A stretch of 64,000 nt of DNA, taken from positions 27,289 through 91,288 of the forward strand of contig ONAR01000028.1 of the NCBI GenBank assembly GCA_900315835.1. Direction: 5' to 3'. Below are positions 28,252-38,072 of this stretch, one piece after another; position 1 is the first letter of the stretch, and each line of letters begins with the position of its first letter. Under the pieces are notes generated by a model. The model ran no database searches and was not told the origin of the DNA. It worked only from the letters and a program-made list of their open reading frames with translations. The DNA comes from an uncultured Prevotella sp. Its GTDB lineage: Bacteria > Bacteroidota > Bacteroidia > Bacteroidales > Bacteroidaceae. The position numbers and the translations under genes were made by a program.

Positions 28252-30051
28252 TCAAATAAGTCTCACGCCACCTTTGTCGGCCGAGCTGACGCTCTGCGCA
28301 TAAGCACGCAACGCCTTGCTCACCACGCGGTTACGCTTCAGCAGCTGTTGTTCGCGGGCAGCAAGTTCCTCGTCGCTAAGCTTGACGTTGATGCTGCGGC
28401 TGGGAATGTCGATAACGATGATGTCGCCATCCTTTATCTTACCGATGTTGCCGCCCGATGCTGCCTCAGGTGAGATGTGGCCGATGCTCAGTCCACTTGT
28501 ACCGCCAGAGAAGCGGCCGTCGGTGATGAGCGCACATTCCTTACCCAGATGACGGCTCTTAATATATGATGTAGGATAGAGCATCTCCTGCATGCCGGGA
28601 CCTCCCTTTGGTCCCTCATGGGTGATGACCACACAGTCGCCACTCTTCACCTTGCCGCCAAGAATGCCTTCGCAAGCATCCTCCTGCGAGTCGAAGACCA
28701 CGGCCGGACCTTCGAAGTGCCACAGTTCAGGTGCCACACCGGCTGTCTTCACCACGCAACCGTTCTGCGCGATGTTGCCAAAGAGCACAGCCAGACCGCC
28801 ATCTTTGGTATAGGCATGCTGAAGGTCGCGGATGCAACCATTGGCGCGGTCGGTGTCGAGCGACTCCCACTGCTCGTCTTGCGAACCCATCACCGTAGAG
28901 AAACGGCGACCGGGGGCACTGTGATAGATACGTGAGGCTTCGGGGTCAACCGCAGTACCGGTGATGTCATATTTCTTCATAGCCTCATCGAGCGTCGTAC
29001 CATCCACCCGGCGTACGCTGCCATCGATGAGTCCGCCCTTATTGAGTTCATTGAGAATACCGAGGATACCGCCGGCGCGGTTGCATTCCTGCACGCTGTA
29101 TTTCTGCGTGTTAGGCGCAAGCTTACAGATGCAAGGCACCTTACGGCTGAGCATGTCGATGTCGCTCATCTTGAAGTCAACGCCACCCTCCTGAGCCACA
29201 GCCAACAGGTGGAGCACGGTGTTGGTGCTGCCGCCCATGGCGATATCGAGCGTCATGGCGTTAAGGAACGCCTGACGAGTAGCGATGCTGCGCGGCAACA
29301 CCGACTCATCGCCGTCCTCATAATAAGCAAGTGCGTTCTTCACAATCTGGCGGGCAGCCTGCTTGAAGAGCTCAATGCGGTTCTTATGCGTAGCCAGTAT
29401 AGTACCGTTGCCAGGCAAAGCGAGACCGATGGCCTCGGTCAGCGAGTTCATTGAATTGGCGGTAAACATACCCGAGCAACAGCCGCAGCCCGGGCAGGCT
29501 GTCTGTTCAATCTTCGTCAAATCAGCATCGCTCACCGACGTGTCGGCACCGGCAATCATTGCCGTAATCAGGTCGGCGTTCTCGCCTTTCCAGCGGCCGG
29601 CTTCCATCGGGCCACCTGAGCAGAATATCGTAGGAATATTGAGGCGCATGGCAGCCATCAGCATACCCGGCGTCACCTTATCGCAATTGGAAATGCAGAT
29701 CATGGCATCGGCCTTATGCGCATTGACCATATATTCAACTGAATCGGCGATAATGTCGCGCGAAGGCAAGGAATAAAGCATACCATCGTGACCCATAGCG
29801 ATGCCGTCGTCCACAGCAATGGTGTTGAATTCAGCGGCATAACACCCCATCGACTCAATCTCTTTCTTTACAATCTGACCAATCTCATGCAGATGCGTAT
29901 GGCCAGGAACGAACTGTGTAAAGCTGTTGACGATGGCAATAATGGGTTTACCAAACTGCTCATGCTTCATACCTGCTGCCACCCACAGGGCGCGGGCGCC
30001 AGCCATTCTACGGCCTTCCGTACAGACCGCACTCCTTAATTGATGCTTCAT
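28252..30051 (-). CDS. ilvD: dihydroxy-acid dehydratase
   Basis: N-terminal [14 protein letters not shown] and [15 protein letters not shown]e-S cluster motifs. Confidence 0.95.
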
Positions 30052-30075
30052 AACCTACCAATTTGTAATTGTGTG

Positions 30076-30083
30076 CAAAGGTA
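30076..30083 (-). promoter_or_regulatory. -7 promoter box (TACCTTTG) for the ilv operon
   Basis: 24 nt upstream of the ilvD ATG, leaving no room for a leader or attenuator. Confidence 0.55.
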
Positions 30084-30303
30084 ATTACTTTTTGGATAAA
30101 TAACGACAATATCAGCAGGAAATAAGACAAAATACAAATAAATAATAAGGCATCATGGCCAAAATCGTTAGAATTCGAAAGTCCTGCGCAATTTTCTGGT
30201 ATGGCCGCAAGCACGTCAATGTGCCAGTACTACGGCCAAATTACCCAAGTACTTCACGTGCAGTACTACAGTAATCAAGGCCGAATTACTCGGGTAGTCA
30301 TTT

Positions 30304-30344
30304 AAAACAGACAATCCCGCCCCACCTCAACGGTGAAACGGGAT
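30304..30344 (-). terminator. terminator of ompA paralog 1
   Basis: Stem atcccg..cacc / ggtg..cgggat, followed on the minus strand by tgtctgtttt. Confidence 0.55.
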
Positions 30345-30380
30345 CTCAACTAATTGTATAAAATATATAGAATATGATGA

Positions 30381-31460
30381 TTACTTCACATAGACCACAG
30401 CGAGGCGGTTAGAAGTAGTACCCTGAACGCCCTTGCCGTTAGCCTCGTCAACGACGACACCCTTGCTCTTCAGGTATGCTGTCTGCGCGAGCCTGAGAAA
30501 TCTTCTGGTTGTTTCCTTGCTGCCTTCAGGAGAAGCAGTACCAACGATCTCAACGTGCTTGCCGCTCTTGATGCCGTCAAGAGCCTTCTTGGCCTCACGG
30601 CTCAGAACGGACTTGCCCTGGGCGAAAGTGACGAACACGAGGTTCTCCACCTTGACTTCCTCGGCGGGAGCCTGTCTCACAATTTCCTTAATCACCTCCT
30701 TGGGCTCCTTGGCAAGCTCCCGGCGCAGGTCATTGATCTGGCTGTTCAGACCGTCAATCTCGCTTTGGTCGCGGGCCTCAAGCACCTTGAAGTTGTGCGT
30801 GCCGTTGGAGTTGAGGAATTTATAGGCAATGCCGGCGTTGAGCTCAACGTAGCTGTGGTTGATGTGGTACTTCACGCCACCGTTGGAAATGTCGTAGTTG
30901 GCAGGGTCGCTCTTGTCGTTCAGTCCATAGAGGATAGCCGGCTCCACATAAGCCTGCCACTGCTTCTTGTTGCCGAAGTTGAAGGCGAAGTCGAGGCCCA
31001 ACTTTGATGTGAGGTTGTTGGGATACGTCTTCTTATGGCTGCCGTCGGTGCGCTCGTTGTTGTAGCCGAAGATGTGGCCCCAGCCGAGACCGGCCACGGG
31101 AATGAGTTCGAAGAAGCGGGGCTCTCCCTTGTAGCCGCCGAACCAGTTGAAGAGGTTCACCGTTCCTATCAAGCTGGTGTTGAGGTAACGCACGGCGGTG
31201 CTTGTGCTACGGAACGGCTTGTCGGAGAAATAAGCATTGCTCTCAACAGCGACACCCAAGACCGGGGTGAACCAGCGGCCGACGCGGATGCCAAAGTTCG
31301 GATCGAGGCCTTTCATCCAGGCATGGCCCGTGGTCTTTGTGGCGAAGCCGCCGTTCACGCCCACGTAGATGTTGTCCAACGTCTTGCTATACTGTACGGT
31401 CTGGGCGCTTGCACCTGCCGCAATCATGGCAGCGGCGACCAGAGAAACTAACTTTTTCAT
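30381..31460 (-). CDS. OmpA-family outer membrane protein, paralog 1 (Pgm6/7-like) with altered peptidoglycan-binding motif
   Basis: Signal peptide, N-terminal beta-barrel, a coiled coil (QSEIDGLNSQINDLRRELAK) and a C-terminal OmpA-like domain. It is 359 aa, a paralog of 35727..36806, and its last approx 100 nt are identical to that gene. Confidence 0.9.
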   Translation of the reverse strand: MKKLVSLVAAAMIAAGASAQTVQYSKTLDNIYVGVNGGFATKTTGHAWMKGLDPNFGIRVGRWFTPVLGVAVESNAYFSDKPFRSTSTAVRYLNTSLIGTVNLFNWFGGYKGEPRFFELIPVAGLGWGHIFGYNNERTDGSHKKTYPNNLTSKLGLDFAFNFGNKKQWQAYVEPAILYGLNDKSDPANYDISNGGVKYHINHSYVELNAGIAYKFLNSNGTHNFKVLEARDQSEIDGLNSQINDLRRELAKEPKEVIKEIVRQAPAEEVKVENLVFVTFAQGKSVLSREAKKALDGIKSGKHVEIVGTASPEGSKETTRRFLRLAQTAYLKSKGVVVDEANGKGVQGTTSNRLAVVYVK

Positions 31461-31505
31461 AATGCTATATCTGATTAAAATATTTAACTTGTTATCTGTC
31501 GGCTA

Positions 31506-31724
31506 TCACTCTGCGTCGTCAAACGAGGGAGAGAACGGCTTGGCAAAAGCTGATCCACCACCCACTTCGCCAGATGTCATTTCACTAATGCCGCCTGTTT
31601 CGTCTGAACCTGAGCCGGAAATTCGGTATCCGGCGCTGTCAGGTCCTGATCCAGATCCTGCCAACACGGTCTCGTTTTCTTCTACCTTGACGACTTTCGT
31701 CATCGGTTTAAAATACTTTTTCAT
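31506..31724 (-). CDS. small acidic Gly/Ser-rich hypothetical protein (72 aa)
   Basis: Sequence MKKYFKPMTKVVKVEENETVLAGSGSGPDSAGY...FDDAE. It has no hydrophobic segment and no Cys. It starts 25 nt downstream of the 1153-aa gene on the same strand. Confidence 0.5.
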   Translation of the reverse strand: MKKYFKPMTKVVKVEENETVLAGSGSGPDSAGYRISGSGSDETGGISEMTSGEVGGGSAFAKPFSPSFDDAE

Positions 31725-31749
31725 ACTTATATAATACTGTTATCCTCTT

Positions 31750-34700
31750 TTACTTAACTTCTATTTTCTTGTTGTTCCAAATATAGATACCTTTCTCAAG
31801 GCCGTCTGTAGTTGTAGCCCCACGCCTTACCAGCATGCCAGAGAGGGTATAGACGTTGCCTTTGGTCATGGGCTTCCTGCTAATCTCGCTGATGCCGGTA
31901 ACGGTGTCGCCGCTGATGATCTCGTCGCCGACAGCCATTGGGACTCTCTTTGCGGCACTGCCGCCGAAATTGATGGAATTGTCGTCGGTCATGTAGCAAC
32001 GCAAGCCGCGGAACTTGTTCACGGCTCCATTCACATAGACCATCTCCGCATTTCCACTTGTCGGCTTCAGAAGGAACGAGTAGAAGCCTGAGCCAACTGC
32101 GCCGAGCTTGTATGTGCCATGCCACGTAATCTTTGTTGCCTCCCAGATGGCGCAGGGGGTGTGGACAAATGAGAGCTCCCTTACCGTAGAGTCGTTCTCA
32201 GCCGTGTCGTAGCTCATGCCATGAATGAGGTAGCACTTGGCAGCAACATAGTCGCTGCCCGTCATGTTCTTCTCGTTGCCGGCTTTCTCATCGGCCAGCG
32301 TGCCGCTGCCGTTGTCGGCCGCAATGTTGCCGTCGATAGTCTCATCGCTGATGTTATCCACCTTGATGATATACGGCGTGTTCTTATGAAGCAGCACGTT
32401 GTTGCCATAGGTCTTGTCAATATAGAACTGCACGAAGTTGGGAGTGTCGGTGCGGAAGTCGGCGGGCTTTGCCAGGCGGGCCTTGCTGCCGAAGGTGGCG
32501 GCGAACTGATTGTAGGTCATATCCACCGGAAGGCAGATGGTAGTCCACATGCCCTGAGCAAAGGAGCGGTTGAGATACATCTTCGTGTTGGTGTAGTCGT
32601 GGGTCTTGTCGAGGGCCGTCTCATTCTCATCCACGAGGAAGGCCACGTTCGGGCAGCTCTCGTCGTCCTCGTAGTCGGGTATGCCGTCAGCGTCGGCATC
32701 AGAGAAGATGCGCATGCCGTAGTAGGACTCGCCATCTTTCAGTGCCTCCAGCACGCCACCGTCACTGATGACAATCTCATCGAAGTCGGCATTAGGCGTC
32801 CAGCGCACGGTATATTTGCCGCCAGTGCCAACAACCTTGGCGTCAAGCGTGTTCCAGTCTGTCTTCTCAGCCACTTTCTGTCCATTGAGATAAGCGTCAA
32901 TCTTGAACACCTTGGCGGCATCGACATTGGCCAGACCAACAATATTGCCCATCGTGATTTCCACCAGATGCTTGCCGGAATAAATCTTTCCCAACTTAAC
33001 GGGGATGACGTTGAACTTGCCTGCTGCACTGACCGTGTTGGCCACCGACAGGTAGTCGTCAAGGTTACCGTCGATGAAATTGGTATAGTTCTCCTTCAGA
33101 CCAACCACGGTAGCTACGCCGCCGAAGCCGCCAAGGAGCGTCTCATCGATACGCGCGCCGTTGTTGTAGCTGACAATCTCGCCCGTCGCGGCCTGCTCTT
33201 CTGCAAACTTCTGCGCGTCGGTGGCATCCTCGCTGAAGGCGTAATACACCTGCACCTTGCTTAGGTCGAGGTTCAACGTAGTGTTGTTGCAAAGCAGCAG
33301 CTCATCCACGTCCTGGTCTGCCTCAAGCTCAACATTGAACTCTGTGGTCGTCTCCTGACTCGTATTGGCGAGGTCAGCCTGCAGCAATTTGAAGTTATGG
33401 TCGCGTGAGACCACCGTAAGCTCCTTACCACCGCCATTGTAGGCATATACTTTCATGGAGTTGAGAAGGTCAACACTGAGCACGTTGGCCGGGAACTTCA
33501 GCACGAAGCCCACCACCGTTCTCTTATCGAGGTGCAATGGGACTGAGCGCTGAACGGCAGCAATGACCGTGGAGCCGGCAAGCTGCAAGCCGCCGACATA
33601 GCTCATGTAGTCGTCAACGGAGCCATTGACAAGGTTGGCGGTATCCTTTTGATTGTCCAACTTGATGAGGGTGAAGCCATTGATGCCTTTCTTCTTCATG
33701 TCTTTATCGGTCATAACGGAATAGGAGACGCTGGGGTCGGTGAAGTTGTTCACCCAAGGCATGGCCGTAGTGTTATATAGACGCTGCACGCCGTAGTTGA
33801 CGGTGGTGGTGCGGGTAGCCTTCGTCGTATCGTCGGTAGCTTCGAAGGTGTAGGTGCCGCCCTTGACAAATCCAGATACTGTGCAGCTCATGTGGTCGGC
33901 TGCATCATTGAGCTTGAGGCTCTTTCCATTATCAGAATTGCACTTCCATGTGACGGGGCGGTTGCTCTTCAGCACCACGTCCTTGGCATCCTCGCAGATA
34001 GTCTGCGCGGCTGAGACGCGGAGCGTGTCGTCAGCATCGATGGAGGGAGGAAGCACGACAAACATGCGGTAAGCCACGGTAGCGCCAAGTCCCAAAATGC
34101 TCTCAGCCCTGAGCTCGACAGCATTGCAATCCTCAGTAAGGGTGGTGATGACGTCCTTACGGCCACCGCCAAGGTCAAGCCCAAGCAGGGTGAATTCTCC
34201 ATCGTTGCCACCCTTGGGAGCCTCCTTCCAGCTCCAAGGGTGGCTAAACAAGCCTGTCTTGTGGCTGGGCGTCATGATATAAGGATGCAGCTTGACGGAA
34301 GATCCCACACCAAGAATGCCGGCGCCTGCTGTCTCGAAGCCTACCGTCATGCCCTTCTTGAAAGGAAGGTTGTTGGCCTCTGCGCCACCATAGGCAGAAA
34401 CGGTTACTGGCGTCCACACCGAAAGCAACGCATTGGTACTGACGTCCACAGAATTGTCGGGATTGTCGTCAATGGTCTTGCCGTTAGCATCAGGAGTCTT
34501 TTGCAAATCTGTGATACACTGACCCAAGACAAGTTTGTCGTTGTCAAAAGTGGTTCCAGGGTATGCTTTCTTCACAGCCTCCTTGAAATCCTCAATGCCA
34601 TTGGTCTTCTCACTGTCGATGAAGTATTTGCCGTTCTTGCCAACAAACGCATACTTCACCGTCATGGCACCGGCGACTTTGGCATTTAAAGCCTGAGCAC

Positions 34701-35211
34701 TGCTAAGACCTATCTCGTCAAAGTCGGCAGGGGCCTTGGCTGCAAACTCCAGGGTGTTCTTGCTAAAGGATGCAAGTTGAAGCTTAAGTAAGGAGCCTTG
34801 TTTTTGCTCGCAAGAGACAGAAGCTATCTCTTTGCCGTCCTTATAGAAGAAAATCCTCATAGGGACATCTATGACATCAAGTTTCAGCACGCTGTTGTCA
34901 ATTGTGACAACGAAACCGGCCGTGGTGCCCTTTGCATAGACGTGCTTTACGTCGCGTACGGTGAAAGTAGGCTCTATGCCTATCTCCGCCTTGACACCGT
35001 TGTAAAAGGGCGCGCCGTTGTCAAGGTTCTTATCGACCAAATACTCAAGGTGAGAGATACCACCGACCACAGACACCGTGGTGTTGAGCCGGTTCACCAT
35101 GCAGTTGGCACCTACCAACGCATGGCGGCGGTCAAGATAGTTCTTGCCCGTGGAGAGTGTGTCCTGATAAACAAGTTTTGAAACATTTGCATCGATGGCC
35201 GATACAGACAT
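31750..35211 (-). CDS. large T9SS-secreted surface protein (as sequenced, lacks its signal peptide because of a frameshift)
   Basis: C-terminus ...GNVYTLSGMLVRRGATTTDGLEKGIYIWNNKKIEVK is a T9SS CTD. There are three internal modules of roughly 180 aa sharing L[VI][DN]GN[LV]DDY ... FDE[IL] ... Y[AG]F. A Ca-binding-like DADADGIPDYEDDESC is present. The ORF starts at MSVSAID with no signal sequence. Confidence 0.85.
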   Translation of the reverse strand: MSVSAIDANVSKLVYQDTLSTGKNYLDRRHALVGANCMVNRLNTTVSVVGGISHLEYLVDKNLDNGAPFYNGVKAEIGIEPTFTVRDVKHVYAKGTTAGFVVTIDNSVLKLDVIDVPMRIFFYKDGKEIASVSCEQKQGSLLKLQLASFSKNTLEFAAKAPADFDEIGLSSAQALNAKVAGAMTVKYAFVGKNGKYFIDSEKTNGIEDFKEAVKKAYPGTTFDNDKLVLGQCITDLQKTPDANGKTIDDNPDNSVDVSTNALLSVWTPVTVSAYGGAEANNLPFKKGMTVGFETAGAGILGVGSSVKLHPYIMTPSHKTGLFSHPWSWKEAPKGGNDGEFTLLGLDLGGGRKDVITTLTEDCNAVELRAESILGLGATVAYRMFVVLPPSIDADDTLRVSAAQTICEDAKDVVLKSNRPVTWKCNSDNGKSLKLNDAADHMSCTVSGFVKGGTYTFEATDDTTKATRTTTVNYGVQRLYNTTAMPWVNNFTDPSVSYSVMTDKDMKKKGINGFTLIKLDNQKDTANLVNGSVDDYMSYVGGLQLAGSTVIAAVQRSVPLHLDKRTVVGFVLKFPANVLSVDLLNSMKVYAYNGGGKELTVVSRDHNFKLLQADLANTSQETTTEFNVELEADQDVDELLLCNNTTLNLDLSKVQVYYAFSEDATDAQKFAEEQAATGEIVSYNNGARIDETLLGGFGGVATVVGLKENYTNFIDGNLDDYLSVANTVSAAGKFNVIPVKLGKIYSGKHLVEITMGNIVGLANVDAAKVFKIDAYLNGQKVAEKTDWNTLDAKVVGTGGKYTVRWTPNADFDEIVISDGGVLEALKDGESYYGMRIFSDADADGIPDYEDDESCPNVAFLVDENETALDKTHDYTNTKMYLNRSFAQGMWTTICLPVDMTYNQFAATFGSKARLAKPADFRTDTPNFVQFYIDKTYGNNVLLHKNTPYIIKVDNISDETIDGNIAADNGSGTLADEKAGNEKNMTGSDYVAAKCYLIHGMSYDTAENDSTVRELSFVHTPCAIWEATKITWHGTYKLGAVGSGFYSFLLKPTSGNAEMVYVNGAVNKFRGLRCYMTDDNSINFGGSAAKRVPMAVGDEIISGDTVTGISEISRKPMTKGNVYTLSGMLVRRGATTTDGLEKGIYIWNNKKIEVK

Positions 35212-35228
35212 ACTGCTCTTAGCAGTAC

Positions 35229-35306
35229 TTACCTCCGCAGCTCGTAAGGGGGGGTAAAGCCCAAGCTTAGAATAGCACTAAGCACTAAAACATGTAAACG
35301 TCGCAT
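35229..35306 (-). other. out-of-frame signal-peptide mini-ORF belonging to the 1153-aa gene
   Basis: ATG at 35306 gives MRRLHVLVLSAILSLGFTPPYELRR*. The n-region and h-region form a canonical Sec signal. It is offset by one base relative to the ATG at 35211 (the two ATGs are 95 nt apart). Confidence 0.7.
35248..35254 (-). repeat. homopolymer G7 (C7 on the coding strand)
   Basis: ...ctcgtaaGGGGGGGtaaagc... It lies in the only stop-free overlap (35232-35277) of the signal-peptide frame and the main ORF frame. Confidence 0.7.
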
Positions 35307-35529
35307 TTCAACGAAGTAAAAATATATCTATAATCTAATTATCCAAAAAGTTCAAATAAATAAGACGGGTAGCAATAAATAAGTTGAAAAGTACGTCTTT
35401 GCTAAATGGATTTCCTATCTATTAAGTTCCAACTAATGCCTTTCTTAGCTTAAACTACGCTATGCTAATCTTAAATACCAAATCTTGTTTTCTAATACAA
35501 TCTAACTAATGTCTTTTTATTTTGCGCTG

Positions 35530-35537
35530 CAAAGGTA
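35530..35537 (-). promoter_or_regulatory. -7 promoter box (TACCTTTG)
   Basis: caaaggta on the + strand, about 225 nt upstream of the signal-peptide ATG, preceding an AT-rich leader. Confidence 0.4.
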
Positions 35538-35659
35538 AGCAGAAAAATTAATATATGAAAAGATTATTGGGGAATCTTTGTCTAAATATTGTTAACGGCG
35601 TGAACGGGCGAAGTCTTTGCCCACACACAAGCAACAGTCTCGCGGCCGCAGACTGGCGC

Positions 35660-35703
35660 ATAAACAGAAATCCCGCCTCACCACTACAAGTGAGACGGGA
35701 TTT
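35660..35703 (-). terminator. terminator of ompA paralog 2
   Basis: Stem aaatcccgcctcac (35668-35681) / gtgagacgggattt (35690-35703). Confidence 0.55.
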
Positions 35704-35726
35704 AATCTATTTCGTTTTATTGGTTA

Positions 35727-36806
35727 TTACTTCACATAGACCACAGCGAGGCGGTTAGAAGTAGTACCCTGAACGCCCTTGCCGTTAGCCTCGTCAACGA
35801 CGACACCCTTGCTCTTCAGGTATGCTGCGCGAGCCTGAGAAATCTTCTGGTTGATTTCCTTGCTGCCCTCGGGAGAAGCAGTACCAACGATCTCAACGTG
35901 CCTGCCGCTCTTGATGCCGTCAAGAGCCTTCTTAGCTTCCTTGGTCAGAGCGGTCTTGCCCTGTGCGAACGTTACGAATACGAGGTTCTCAACCTTAACT
36001 TCCTTAGTGGTAGCGGGAGCTTCCTTAACAACTTCCTTAACAACCTCCTTAGGCTTCTTAGCGAGCTCGTTGCGCAGGTCGTTAATCTGGCTGTTCAGGC
36101 CATCAATTTCGCTCTGGTCACGGAGCTGAGCGATCTTGAAGTTGTGAGTGCCGTTAGAAGTCTTGAACTTATAAACGACACCGGCGTTCAGCTGTGCGAA
36201 AGCGCGGTTGATGTTGTACTGGACATCGTCATAGCCGAAACCGTTGAGACCCCAAACCATAGCGGGCTCGATGTAGATCTGCCAAGCCTTGCTCTCACCG
36301 AGGTTGAAAGCGAAGTCGAGACCGGCCTTAGAGGTCAGAGAGTTGGCACGACCAATCTTGCTTGTATTGAAATCGGGATCTGCCTTACCAACCAGTGCGT
36401 TGCCCTTGGTGCCGAAAGTATGACCCCATCCGAGGCCATAGAGAGCGCTCACCTCGAAAGTACGGGGCTCACCCTTGTAGCCACCGAACCAGTTGCTCAG
36501 GTTAACGGTACCCAGCAGGCTGGTGTTCAGGGCGCGAACAGCAGTGCCGTTGCTCTTCCAAGGCTTGTTGGAGAAATAAGCGTTGCTCTCAACAGCCAGA
36601 CCGAAAACCGGAGTGAAGTTGCGGCCGATGCGAACACCGAAGTTGGGGTCGAGACCCTTCAACCAAGCGTGGCCAGTAGCTTTGGTAGCCACACCACCGT
36701 TGATACCGACATAAATGTTGTCGAAAGTCTTGCTCTCCTCAACGGTCTGAGCAGATGCGCCAGCTGCAATCACGGCAGCAGCGATCAAAGTAAATAACTT
36801 TTTCAT
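35727..36806 (-). CDS. OmpA-family outer membrane protein, paralog 2 (canonical motif)
   Basis: Same architecture as paralog 1. It retains GTASPEGSKEINQKISQARAAYL (the N-x2-[LI]-S-x2-R-A peptidoglycan-binding motif). Confidence 0.9.
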   Translation of the reverse strand: MKKLFTLIAAAVIAAGASAQTVEESKTFDNIYVGINGGVATKATGHAWLKGLDPNFGVRIGRNFTPVFGLAVESNAYFSNKPWKSNGTAVRALNTSLLGTVNLSNWFGGYKGEPRTFEVSALYGLGWGHTFGTKGNALVGKADPDFNTSKIGRANSLTSKAGLDFAFNLGESKAWQIYIEPAMVWGLNGFGYDDVQYNINRAFAQLNAGVVYKFKTSNGTHNFKIAQLRDQSEIDGLNSQINDLRNELAKKPKEVVKEVVKEAPATTKEVKVENLVFVTFAQGKTALTKEAKKALDGIKSGRHVEIVGTASPEGSKEINQKISQARAAYLKSKGVVVDEANGKGVQGTTSNRLAVVYVK

Positions 36807-36859
36807 AATACAAATAGTTGAATTAAATGTTATCTATTTCCCTTTTACTTAAAGCGGTG

Positions 36860-36867
36860 CAAATGTA
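36860..36867 (-). promoter_or_regulatory. -7 promoter box (TACATTTG) for ompA paralog 2
   Basis: caaatgta on the + strand, 54 nt upstream of the ATG at 36806. Confidence 0.5.
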
Positions 36868-37193
36868 ATGCCAATTTTTTAATCCCGCAAATTTTTCTGC
36901 GGAAATTTTACACCGCAAGCATAAAATTGTACTTTTTTTGACGTTAGTCAACCATTTTATCGGCCTAATCATGAAGAGGTTTAATACACTAACCCACTAT
37001 TCAATATTTCCACAACTTGGTACAGCAACATTGTCATGACAGTCGCACAATATGCGTCAGAATAGTGCTCATCTATATTAAACCTCTCAAATCAGGAACT
37101 CTATATACTAAATTGGGAGTCTCTATATATTAAATAAGGTGTATCCCCTAAGTTGGATAAGTCGGACAAGTAAGATGATGCAACAAAGCGCCC

Positions 37194-38072
37194 CTATTTA
37201 TAATAGGTTTTCTTGGCTGCCGCCAGCGTATTTTTCATCAGCGAGCAGATGGTCATAGGGCCTACACCACCTGGAACAGGGGTGATGAAAGAACACTTTG
37301 GCGCCACCTCGTCAAACTTCACATCGCCATTGAGGCGGAAGCCCTTCTTCTTCGTGGCATCGGGCACACGCGTCGTACCAACGTCAATGACAACAGCCCC
37401 CTCCTTGACCATGTCAGCAGTGACAAAGTTGGGGCGACCGATGGCCGCAATAATGATGTCAGCCTCACGACATTCCTGCTTCAGCGTTGTTGAATGGGAA
37501 TGACAAACTGTCACAGTGGCGTCGCCATATTGCTTCTGCATCATCAGTTGGGCGACAGGCTTGCCGACGATATTGCTGCGCCCCAATACCACACACTTCT
37601 TACCGGAAGTTGCAATATGGTAATGCTGAAGAAGCGTCAGAATGCCGAGGGGCGTCGCCGAAACAAAGCAAGGCAATCCGATAGCCATACGACCCACATT
37701 GATGGGATGGAAGCCATCGACATCCTTGCGGTAGTCAATGGCCATGATAATCTTTTGCTCGTCGATGTGCTTGGGCAAAGGCAGCTGGACGATAAAGCCG
37801 TCAACGTCGGCGTCGTTGTTGAGCCGGTTGACGCAGGCCAACAGTTCTTCCTCGGTGACGTCATCCTCATAGCGGATGAGCGTTGACTTGAAGCCACACT
37901 GCTCGCAGGCGATGACTTTGTTCTTCACATAAGTCTCCGATCCGCCATCGTGACCCACCAGAACGGCAGCCAAGTGAGGCTGCTTCTGACCGTTGGCCAC
38001 CATTTGGCTCACTTCCTCGGCAATCTGCTGCTTAATCGCTGCAGCCGTAGCTTTTCCATCAATCAGCGTCAT
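37194..38072 (-). CDS. folD: bifunctional methylenetetrahydrofolate dehydrogenase / methenyl-THF cyclohydrolase
   Basis: [14 protein letters not shown]..., [22 protein letters not shown]. Confidence 0.95.

Follow-up and report, generated by a model that had tools for sequence, protein, structure and literature searches.

A Poly-C Tract in the Signal-Peptide Leader of a 1153-Codon Gene Body: A Candidate Slipped-Strand ON/OFF Switch in an Uncultured Prevotella

Organization of the Locus

How is a large protein that appears to be meant for export produced from an open reading frame (ORF) without an export signal, when a complete signal peptide is encoded just upstream, in another frame? This question is raised by a locus within a 64,000-nt stretch of DNA of an uncultured Prevotella sp. 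(GenBank assembly GCA_900315835.1, contig ONAR01000028.1, positions 27,289 to 91,288 of the forward strand), hereafter called the window. The element in question is a run of seven cytosines, located in a short leader ORF upstream of an intact 1153-codon ORF (the gene body), which may be a slipped-strand switch, a lesion, a recoding site, or an error of assembly. Coordinates of the locus are those of the whole 64-kb window, and the gene is read on the minus strand. Its parts are as follows.

35229..35306, minus strand: 25-codon signal-peptide ORF, MRRLHVLVLSAILSLGFTPPYELRR and stop, with the ATG at 35306 and the TAA at 35231-35229 (ORF listing)
35248..35254, minus strand: poly-C tract, C7 on the coding strand and G7 on the plus strand (direct sequence count)
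35232..35277, minus strand: joint stop-free stretch of the signal-peptide frame and the body frame (three-frame translation)
31750..35211, minus strand: gene body, intact 1153-codon ORF with the ATG at 35211 and the C-terminal end ...GIYIWNNKKIEVK (translation)

On the minus strand, the leader reads ttgaa ATG cga cgt tta cat gtt tta gtg ctt agt gct att, continues as cta agc ttg ggc ttt acc ccc cct tac gag ctg cgg agg TAA, and is followed by gtactgctaagagcagt up to the second ATG (tct gta tcg...). Its product is composed of an n-region (MRR), an h-region (LHVLVLSAILSLGF, a 14-residue hydrophobic core), and a c-region (TPP), and the Pro-Pro of the latter is encoded by the poly-C tract. In the C7 state, the signal peptide is followed by the out-of-frame tail YELRR and then by the TAA codon, 17 nt before the ATG at 35211. 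The body begins with MSVSAIDANV, without a hydrophobic segment, and lies one base out of frame with respect to the signal-peptide ORF. Upstream, the body frame stays free of stops no farther than 35277, where a TAG (35280-35278) closes it, and no ATG, GTG, or TTG start is present in this frame over 35277-35211.

As the two frames are jointly open only within 35232-35277, the indel joining them must fall there, and the C7 run is the sole repeat within this stretch. One additional C (C8) or two fewer (C5) place the leader and the body in one frame (ON), the C8 product of the window allele being ...GFTPPLRAAEVSTAKSSMSVSAID... / ...SLGFTPPLRAAEVSTAKSSMSVSAIDANV..., and C7 leaves them in different frames (OFF). 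The window allele is OFF as sequenced, its C7 separating the signal peptide from the body. The original prediction, made from the letters alone, had described the 25-codon leader ORF, the 1153-aa ORF starting with MSVSAIDANV, a run of seven (which it had counted by eye), the one-base offset with a single shared stop-free stretch, and the two repairing tract lengths; the ORF listing, a direct count (exactly seven), and the three-frame translation bore out all of these points.

Proposed Mechanism

We consider a simple sequence repeat (SSR), i.e., slipped-strand, contingency locus to be the best explanation of the tract, and a likely one. According to it, a large surface protein would be exported only at those tract lengths which keep the signal peptide in frame with the body, and for the window allele the productive lengths would be C8 or C5. 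At C7, translation started at ATG 35306 would end after 25 codons, and a product started or re-initiated at ATG 35211 would carry no signal peptide and would not be exportable. Slipped-strand mispairing during replication would add or remove a C, giving a heritable and reversible ON/OFF change. The cleavage site is predicted at LRA/AE in the window allele, and at WA/SG or AAA/G in its relatives. The prolines encoded by the tract (helix-breaking, and placed just before the cleavage site) would confine the effect of in-frame 3-nt changes to the cleaved leader. As the tract encodes only prolines before the predicted cleavage, variants with 1, 2, or 3 Pro should leave the mature protein unchanged.

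The Tract against Its Genomic Background

The abundance of homopolymers was compared with the expectation of a first-order Markov model of the window (G+C content of 53.5%). Only one G/C run of at least 6 nt, namely the poly-C tract, is present in the window versus 17.6 ± 3.9 expected, and for runs of at least 7 nt the expectation was 4.2 ± 1.9. Within 46 ORFs taken as genes, CCC is the commonest proline codon (300/712), and none of the 14 Pro-Pro dicodons is CCCCCC. The genome avoids G/C homopolymers, and the poly-C tract is a retained exception. Retention of the repeat against the genomic background is one of the criteria applied to SSR contingency loci; here, the tract is the sole run of at least 6 nt, and even alleles that are only about 40% identical have it at the same T-P-P codons of their leaders. 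G/C runs of at least 5 nt were also counted, and 17 were found in the window, with 77 expected.

ON and OFF Alleles among the Relatives

The state of each allele was read from DNA throughout. Most of the allele DNA was obtained by exact-protein look-ups and is biased toward the state of the looked-up gene call; in addition, scans of genome contigs and metagenome contigs gave 3 and 10 loci, respectively.

Within the 90% cluster comprising the window protein, most members are 1150-1154 aa calls starting with MS[AV]S..., i.e., OFF. One member of this cluster, P0133 (1184 aa), starts with MRRLHVLVLSVILSLGFTPPRLRAAEVSTAKSSMSASALDANV, and its DNA (locus L015) reads A-C9-GTTTACGAG, which is in frame and ON. 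The leader and the body are fused there as predicted (...GFTPPRLRAAEV... / MRRLHVLVLSVILSLGFTPPRLRAAEV...). The sisters of L015 (L001, L016, and L017) carry A-C7-GTTTACGAG, and L014 has a variant flank, A-C7-GTTTGCGGG; all four are OFF. The L015 sub-lineage is ON at C6 or C9 and OFF at C7, its common state; the window sub-lineage, with a flank shorter by 2 nt, is ON at C5 or C8, and C7 is OFF there as well. The two OFF sub-lineages are, therefore, shifted in opposite senses, one needing +1 and the other -1 to restore the frame, which indicates that the frame state has changed more than once without decay of the gene.

In a second series, the compared stretch consists of the 5' region that encodes MRRIYYFLFSVILNIVCTPP... 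and the 80 nt preceding it; here, four tract lengths occur on sequences that are 94-98% identical.

C6: L018, L019; OFF
C7: L043-L048; OFF
C8: L049; ON
C9: L050-L052; OFF

The remaining alleles, down to about 40% identity, have tracts of 5 to 9 C, and the following lengths and states were recorded among them.

L002, L003: C8; ON
L021: TG-C8; OFF
L025: C9; OFF
L026-33: C9; OFF
L034-40: C7; OFF
L041: C7; OFF
L042: C5; OFF

The leader is joined in frame to the body also in the ON homologues P0004, P0009, P0024, and others. The N-termini of the ON alleles, judged by n/h/c-region anatomy, follow the pattern M[RQ]R, 13-15 hydrophobic residues, and TPP.WA/SG or similar. Most alleles of the family are OFF (the window allele, L001, L014, L016-19, L021, L025, L026-48, and L050-52). 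Among 11 loci originating from GTDB representatives and JGI metagenome contigs, which were not chosen by gene call, three are in frame at the tract, which is close to the one third expected for a freely slipping tract.

The features that define SSR contingency loci number five, frequent and reversible switching within a clone being one; four of them apply here, namely the retention described above and three that can be read from these alleles. The gain or loss of a repeat unit changes the reading frame; the length varies on near-identical flanks (C7 versus C9 in one 90% cluster, and the C6-C9 series); and both ON (L015, L049, L002, and L003) and OFF alleles exist, with the ORF under constraint. 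A tract fixed at an in-frame eight in all strains, which the original prediction had named as evidence against itself, was looked for across the relatives and was not found. Its central proposal, a gene that is OFF as sequenced and a candidate slipped-strand switch, gains support from the ON sister allele, the series of tract lengths, and the family-wide presence of the tract.

Gene calls proved to be a poor guide to these states. Their N-termini ('MVNRL...', 'MSVPPP...') were tried as a proxy of the OFF state and dropped, as P0037 is called from an internal Met and its contig is in frame. This is the locus L003 (CAAGLS010000001.1), which is in frame from the leader ATG, yet its database protein starts internally (MVNKL...). 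In this family, the ON/OFF state cannot be reliably taken from gene calls, and many of the proteins in databases are cut short at the N-terminus.

An outgroup lineage does not possess a long C run and has GTT-TTT-TCC-CC at the homologous site of the leader c-region. Its T run differs between alleles, with T6 being ON (L054, 650-660) versus T5 being OFF (L023, ~1440) on otherwise identical sequence.

Reproducibility of the Tract Length and the Possibility of an Artefact

The exact 1153-aa protein is recorded in 89 blocks of the assembly collection. The window allele reads A-C7-TTACGAG in 10/10 places read, which come from several ENA studies and different assemblers. For three other alleles, the tract was likewise constant, i.e., C9 in 8/8 places for P0012, C7 in 7/7 places for P0047, and C7 in 6/6 places for P0084. 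The tract length is reproducible and heritable per allele, and it is not sequencing noise.

Homopolymers are error-prone on some platforms, and one could suppose that the true tract is C8 and the gene an ordinary intact one. We regard such an assembly or sequencing artefact as highly improbable, given that the places showing C7 include both MEGAHIT-style k141 contigs and scaffolds of other pipelines, that the same types of data reproducibly give C8 and C9 for other alleles, and that no homopolymer-type break occurs in any other ORF of the window.

Selection on the Gene Body and the Possibility of Lineage-Fixed Inactivation

The ratio of nonsynonymous to synonymous substitution rates (dN/dS) of the body, calculated by the Nei-Gojobori method against three sister alleles (about 93% amino acid identity), is 0.34-0.36, with 69-86 synonymous and 84-111 nonsynonymous differences. 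The window allele and 2/3 of these partners are out of frame, and a dN/dS of about 0.35 under such circumstances indicates purifying selection on alleles that were sampled in the OFF state. The body of the window allele consists of 1153 codons without a stop or a further frameshift, and in all OFF alleles with the 5' end covered, the leader ORF is unbroken as far as the tract.

These data bear on the possibility that the gene is a young pseudogene, formed by a 1-nt deletion in a mutable run and fixed in its lineage, with no switching. In favor of it are the C7/OFF state of the window allele in 10/10 assemblies, the sister lineage which is mostly OFF too (L001, L014, L016, and L017), and the frameshifts of an irreversible type which occur elsewhere in L053 and L022. 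Nevertheless, we judge lineage-fixed inactivation unlikely, as the 1153 codons are unbroken and the dN/dS of about 0.35 holds also between alleles that are both OFF, the signal-peptide ORF preceding the tract is perfectly preserved, the OFF sister lineages are shifted in opposite directions and have an ON member in the same 90% cluster, and the family keeps the tract though the genome otherwise purges such runs. The original prediction had described a dead gene as a fixed C7 accompanied by additional inactivating mutations; the first half of this description fits (C7 is fixed in the ten assemblies), and the second does not, as the body is intact and constrained.

In the two loci mentioned above, L053 (~1880) and L022, an in-frame C8 is combined with an A4-to-A3 frameshift (relative to L002) about 520 nt into the gene, which splits it into 197-aa and 952-aa calls; their cluster contains 88 member sequences.

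Recoding as an Alternative to DNA-Level Switching

Constant consensus lengths, together with alleles that are mostly out of frame yet under purifying selection, may also be read in terms of recoding. In such a case, RNA polymerase slippage or -1/+1 ribosomal slippage would let the 'OFF' alleles produce full-length exported protein at a steady, low level, with the DNA length merely tuning the yield. CCC-C sites are prone to frameshifting by tRNA-Pro, and a -1 ribosomal slip on ACC-CCC-CCT would yield ...TPPLRAAEV... in the window allele. Moreover, both alleles needing +1 and alleles needing -1 exist, and bidirectional stuttering could serve both. On the other hand, L015, L049, L002, and L003 are in frame and need no recoding, and the tract length differs among near-identical alleles, which makes a change at the DNA level certain. 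The family shows no conserved fixed length, shift direction, or obvious stimulatory element, unlike known programmed frameshifts, and it is for A/T runs of at least 9 nt that transcriptional slippage has been documented best. We thus find recoding quite unlikely as the explanation of the tract, and it could act as leakiness beside DNA-level switching. Classification of the locus as a programmed frameshift or transcriptional slippage gene was considered and rejected, with tract lengths ranging from 5 to 9 and the shifts needed being +1, -1, or none.

Points Weighing against Switching

Several observations weigh against the slipped-strand contingency locus proposed above. Tract heterogeneity was not found among contigs encoding an identical protein in any of the 31/31 places examined for four alleles, and the invariance of the tract across samples of one allele does not support very fast neutral drift; switching would have to be slow enough, or selected enough, for the consensus to stay put for as long as the protein remains identical. 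All 10 sampled copies of the window allele are OFF, and no C8 copy was seen among them. Ordinary pseudogenization also occurs in the family, as exemplified by L053 and L022. Furthermore, the surface location and the function of the protein are only inferred.

Given the constant consensus lengths, the switching rate may be modest, with the OFF state favored in the gut. We infer that the length changes by replication slippage, at a rate which would suffice for a switch at the population level, and the OFF majority would then reflect selection or bet-hedging in the gut.

Shared 5' Cassette

Four loci with the MRRIYYFLF... 5' region (L018, L043, L049, and L050) are 94-98% identical over a segment of 200 nt, which starts 80 nt before the leader ATG and takes in the leader, the tract, and the beginning of the mature coding sequence. 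The bodies downstream of this shared cassette are only about 45-65% identical, and the C-terminal tail is conserved again. Such a mosaic suggests recombination or gene conversion of a promoter-leader-tract module among divergent bodies, as in antigenic-variation families. The loci sharing the cassette are either paralogues in one genome or alleles in different species.

A broader and more tentative idea, which we think possible, albeit with less than even chances, is that of a multigene or multi-allele family of large lectin-like surface proteins in gut Prevotella, with strongly divergent bodies placed behind a common recombining 5' cassette, which would combine phase and antigenic variation in the style of Opa/Vsp and would be mostly OFF in the human gut. 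If true, no SSR-based 'phasome' would have been described earlier in Bacteroidales, an order whose phase variation is ascribed to invertases.

The Encoded Protein

Neither the whole protein nor its N-terminal and C-terminal parts had a match in Pfam or NCBIfam, and the same was true of six full-length homologues and 18 C-terminal segments, the highest E thresholds being 10 for the C-terminal 113 aa of the window protein and 1 for the homologues. In total, 1256 homologues were detected; a precomputed Pfam domain was assigned to none of them, and 'hypothetical protein' was the sole source name encountered. They originate from human and animal gut metagenomes and from Prevotella/Bacteroidales metagenome-assembled genomes, and the nearest match in the genome collection was 'uncultured Prevotella sp. 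MGYG-HGUT-04621'.

An AlphaFold2 (AF2) model of the body, built with 38 homologues, is all-beta, with a predicted local distance difference test (pLDDT) score of 76 and a predicted template modeling (pTM) score of 0.73. The Foldseek search of this model against PDB pointed to reelin repeats, neuropilin b1b2 (discoidin), the carbohydrate-binding modules CBM32/CBM51, F-lectin, and carbohydrate-binding modules of sialidases. Based on these matches, the body can be described as a string of galactose-binding-like jelly rolls and immunoglobulin (Ig)-like domains, and the modeled fold suggests that the protein is probably a glycan-binding surface protein or adhesin.

The C-terminus (...TGI...GNVYTLSGMLV...GIYIWNNKKIEVK) resembles the secretion tails of Bacteroidetes. 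When the last 95 residues of the family were turned into a profile, it matched the very end of 4kca_A (E 5.5e-5), an endo-arabinanase derived from a rumen metagenome, and that of 7jvi_A (E 0.018). Modeled on its own by AF2, the C-terminal piece of 95 aa came out poorly (pLDDT 66), and no match to this poor model was returned by Foldseek. The original prediction had labeled this end of the protein as a T9SS (type IX secretion system) sorting domain, a label that gained no confirmation, as no Por_Secre_tail (PF18962 / TIGR04183) or other hidden Markov model match was found in any member tested; the identity of the protein as T9SS cargo is plausible, and unconfirmed. The need for Sec export is thus deduced from the canonical signal peptides carried by the ON homologues, and not from the T9SS label.

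Upstream and Downstream Surroundings

The following features were distinguished in the vicinity of the gene.

35530..35537, minus strand: candidate -7 promoter element of the Bacteroidetes type, TACCTTTG, located 231 nt upstream of ATG 35306 (motif match only)
35668..35703, minus strand: terminator-like hairpin after the upstream OmpA-like gene, with 14-nt arms (93% complementary) and an 8-nt loop
31506..31724, minus strand: small downstream ORF of 72 aa, MKKYFKPMTKVVKVEENETVLAGSGSG..., a partner of a kind also found after the large gene in homologous loci
Small-ORF regions of homologous loci: L026 4884-5281, L041 4212-4621, L043 4304-4882, L049 3692-4098

The hairpin suggests that the switch gene has its own transcription unit. 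Apart from this terminator hairpin of the upstream gene, no inverted repeats were found in 35150-35760, and in particular no inverton flanks around the candidate promoter. In the wider region 30000-37200, there are no inverted repeats of at least 25 nt except the pair 36975-37087, which lies beyond the neighboring gene. Inverton-controlled phase variation was, therefore, rejected, as inverted repeats flanking the promoter region are missing.

From one to three small ORFs (43-78 aa) are located 3' of the large gene in every homologous locus with the 3' flank covered. Most of them share the N-terminus MK.YIKP....IK.D..PLLAGSG, and in most lineages the C-terminus is ...DDxxNW, KKWY, or KWL. No core resembling that of a signal peptide and no Pfam or NCBIfam match was found in these small downstream ORFs.

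Two paralogues of 359 aa, arranged as direct repeats, bracket the switch gene (30381-31460 and 35727-36806, both on the minus strand). Each gives a weak beta-barrel-like or OmpA-like match, and they are 69% identical overall and 98% identical over a stretch of 107 nt that takes in the final ~100 nt and the stop codon of both genes. Among assemblies with the identical 1153-aa gene, the called lengths of the paralogues range from 267 to 363 aa, with indels in the shared C-terminal OmpA-like part, which reflects either a repeat collapsed during assembly or genuine recombination of the two copies. Direct repeats of this kind could also loop out the switch gene.

A T run located about 15-20 nt upstream of the leader ATG varies between 5' cassettes that are otherwise nearly identical, being T7, T6, or T5 followed by AAA (L018/L043/L045); in the window, it is T5, at about 35317-35321. 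It is a possible second tuning site.

Significance of the Locus

The locus and its 1256 homologues suggest a second, SSR-based layer of surface variation in a dominant gut genus of non-industrialized populations. Gene callers truncate or split such genes, and analyses of gene presence and absence miss the ON/OFF state. The tract is a simple marker of the expression state that can be read from sequence; it could be mined from existing metagenome reads and related to host immunity, phage pressure, or transmission. The conservation of the tract across the family, the predominance of OFF alleles in human metagenomes, and the shared 5' cassette make the locus worth following up.

Comparison with Known Phase-Variable Systems

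Frameshift switches located in the signal-peptide region are well known in other bacteria. In Neisseria pilC, a poly-G tract in the signal-sequence region plays this role, and in oipA/hopH, hopZ, and sabA of Helicobacter pylori, CT repeats are found in the signal-peptide coding region. Similarly to these genes, the Prevotella locus has a tract in the 5' signal region as a candidate frameshift switch, and both ON and OFF strains exist. It belongs to another phylum and another protein family, and for pilC and the H. pylori genes there is direct proof of switching. A further difference is the Prevotella 5' cassette, which is 94-98% identical over bodies that are 45-65% identical.

The opa genes of Neisseria carry CTCTT pentamer repeats in the region coding for the leader peptide and undergo slipped-strand ON/OFF switching (PMC3960869). 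In both systems, a repeat in the leader coding sequence sets the frame of an outer-surface protein (a putative one in Prevotella), a gene family with variable bodies is involved, and in-frame changes of the repeat touch only the cleaved leader. In contrast to the pentamer of a proteobacterium, the repeat described here is a mononucleotide C run in a gut Prevotella (Bacteroidales), and instead of an 8-stranded barrel it precedes an unrelated protein of about 1150 aa, composed of several beta-sandwich domains and possibly sorted by T9SS.

Expansion of SSR phase variation to new organisms is exemplified, in a passage of one review, by the poly-C tract of the Gardnerella sialidase gene nanH3, a recently recognized site of this kind (PMC11868660). 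Both cases concern a homopolymer in the 5' coding part of a gene whose product is secreted or located on the surface, in a commensal of human mucosae; nanH3, however, is a single gene of an actinobacterium and encodes another protein, whereas in Prevotella there is a large family with a tract-bearing 5' cassette.

In gut Bacteroidales, phase variation is attributed to invertible promoters, and two 2025 reviews discuss only invertases (PMC11868660, PMC12632263), in agreement with the remark of the original prediction that homopolymer slippage is not a standard mechanism in this order. The full-text literature searched, the coverage of which is incomplete, yielded no description of phase variation by homopolymers or slipped strands in Prevotella, Segatella, or Bacteroidales, and this absence is not a proof. 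The invertible promoters, driven by Mpi/Tsr-type invertases at capsular polysaccharide (CPS), SusC/D, and fimbriae loci, have in common with the proposed switch the stochastic ON/OFF control of surface structures. In the locus described here, unlike in those systems, the putative switch is a homopolymer within the coding region, there are no inverted repeats at the promoter, and no recombinase adjoins the gene. The proposed mechanism is of a well-known kind, and its likely occurrence in a gut Prevotella is a further reason to follow the locus up.

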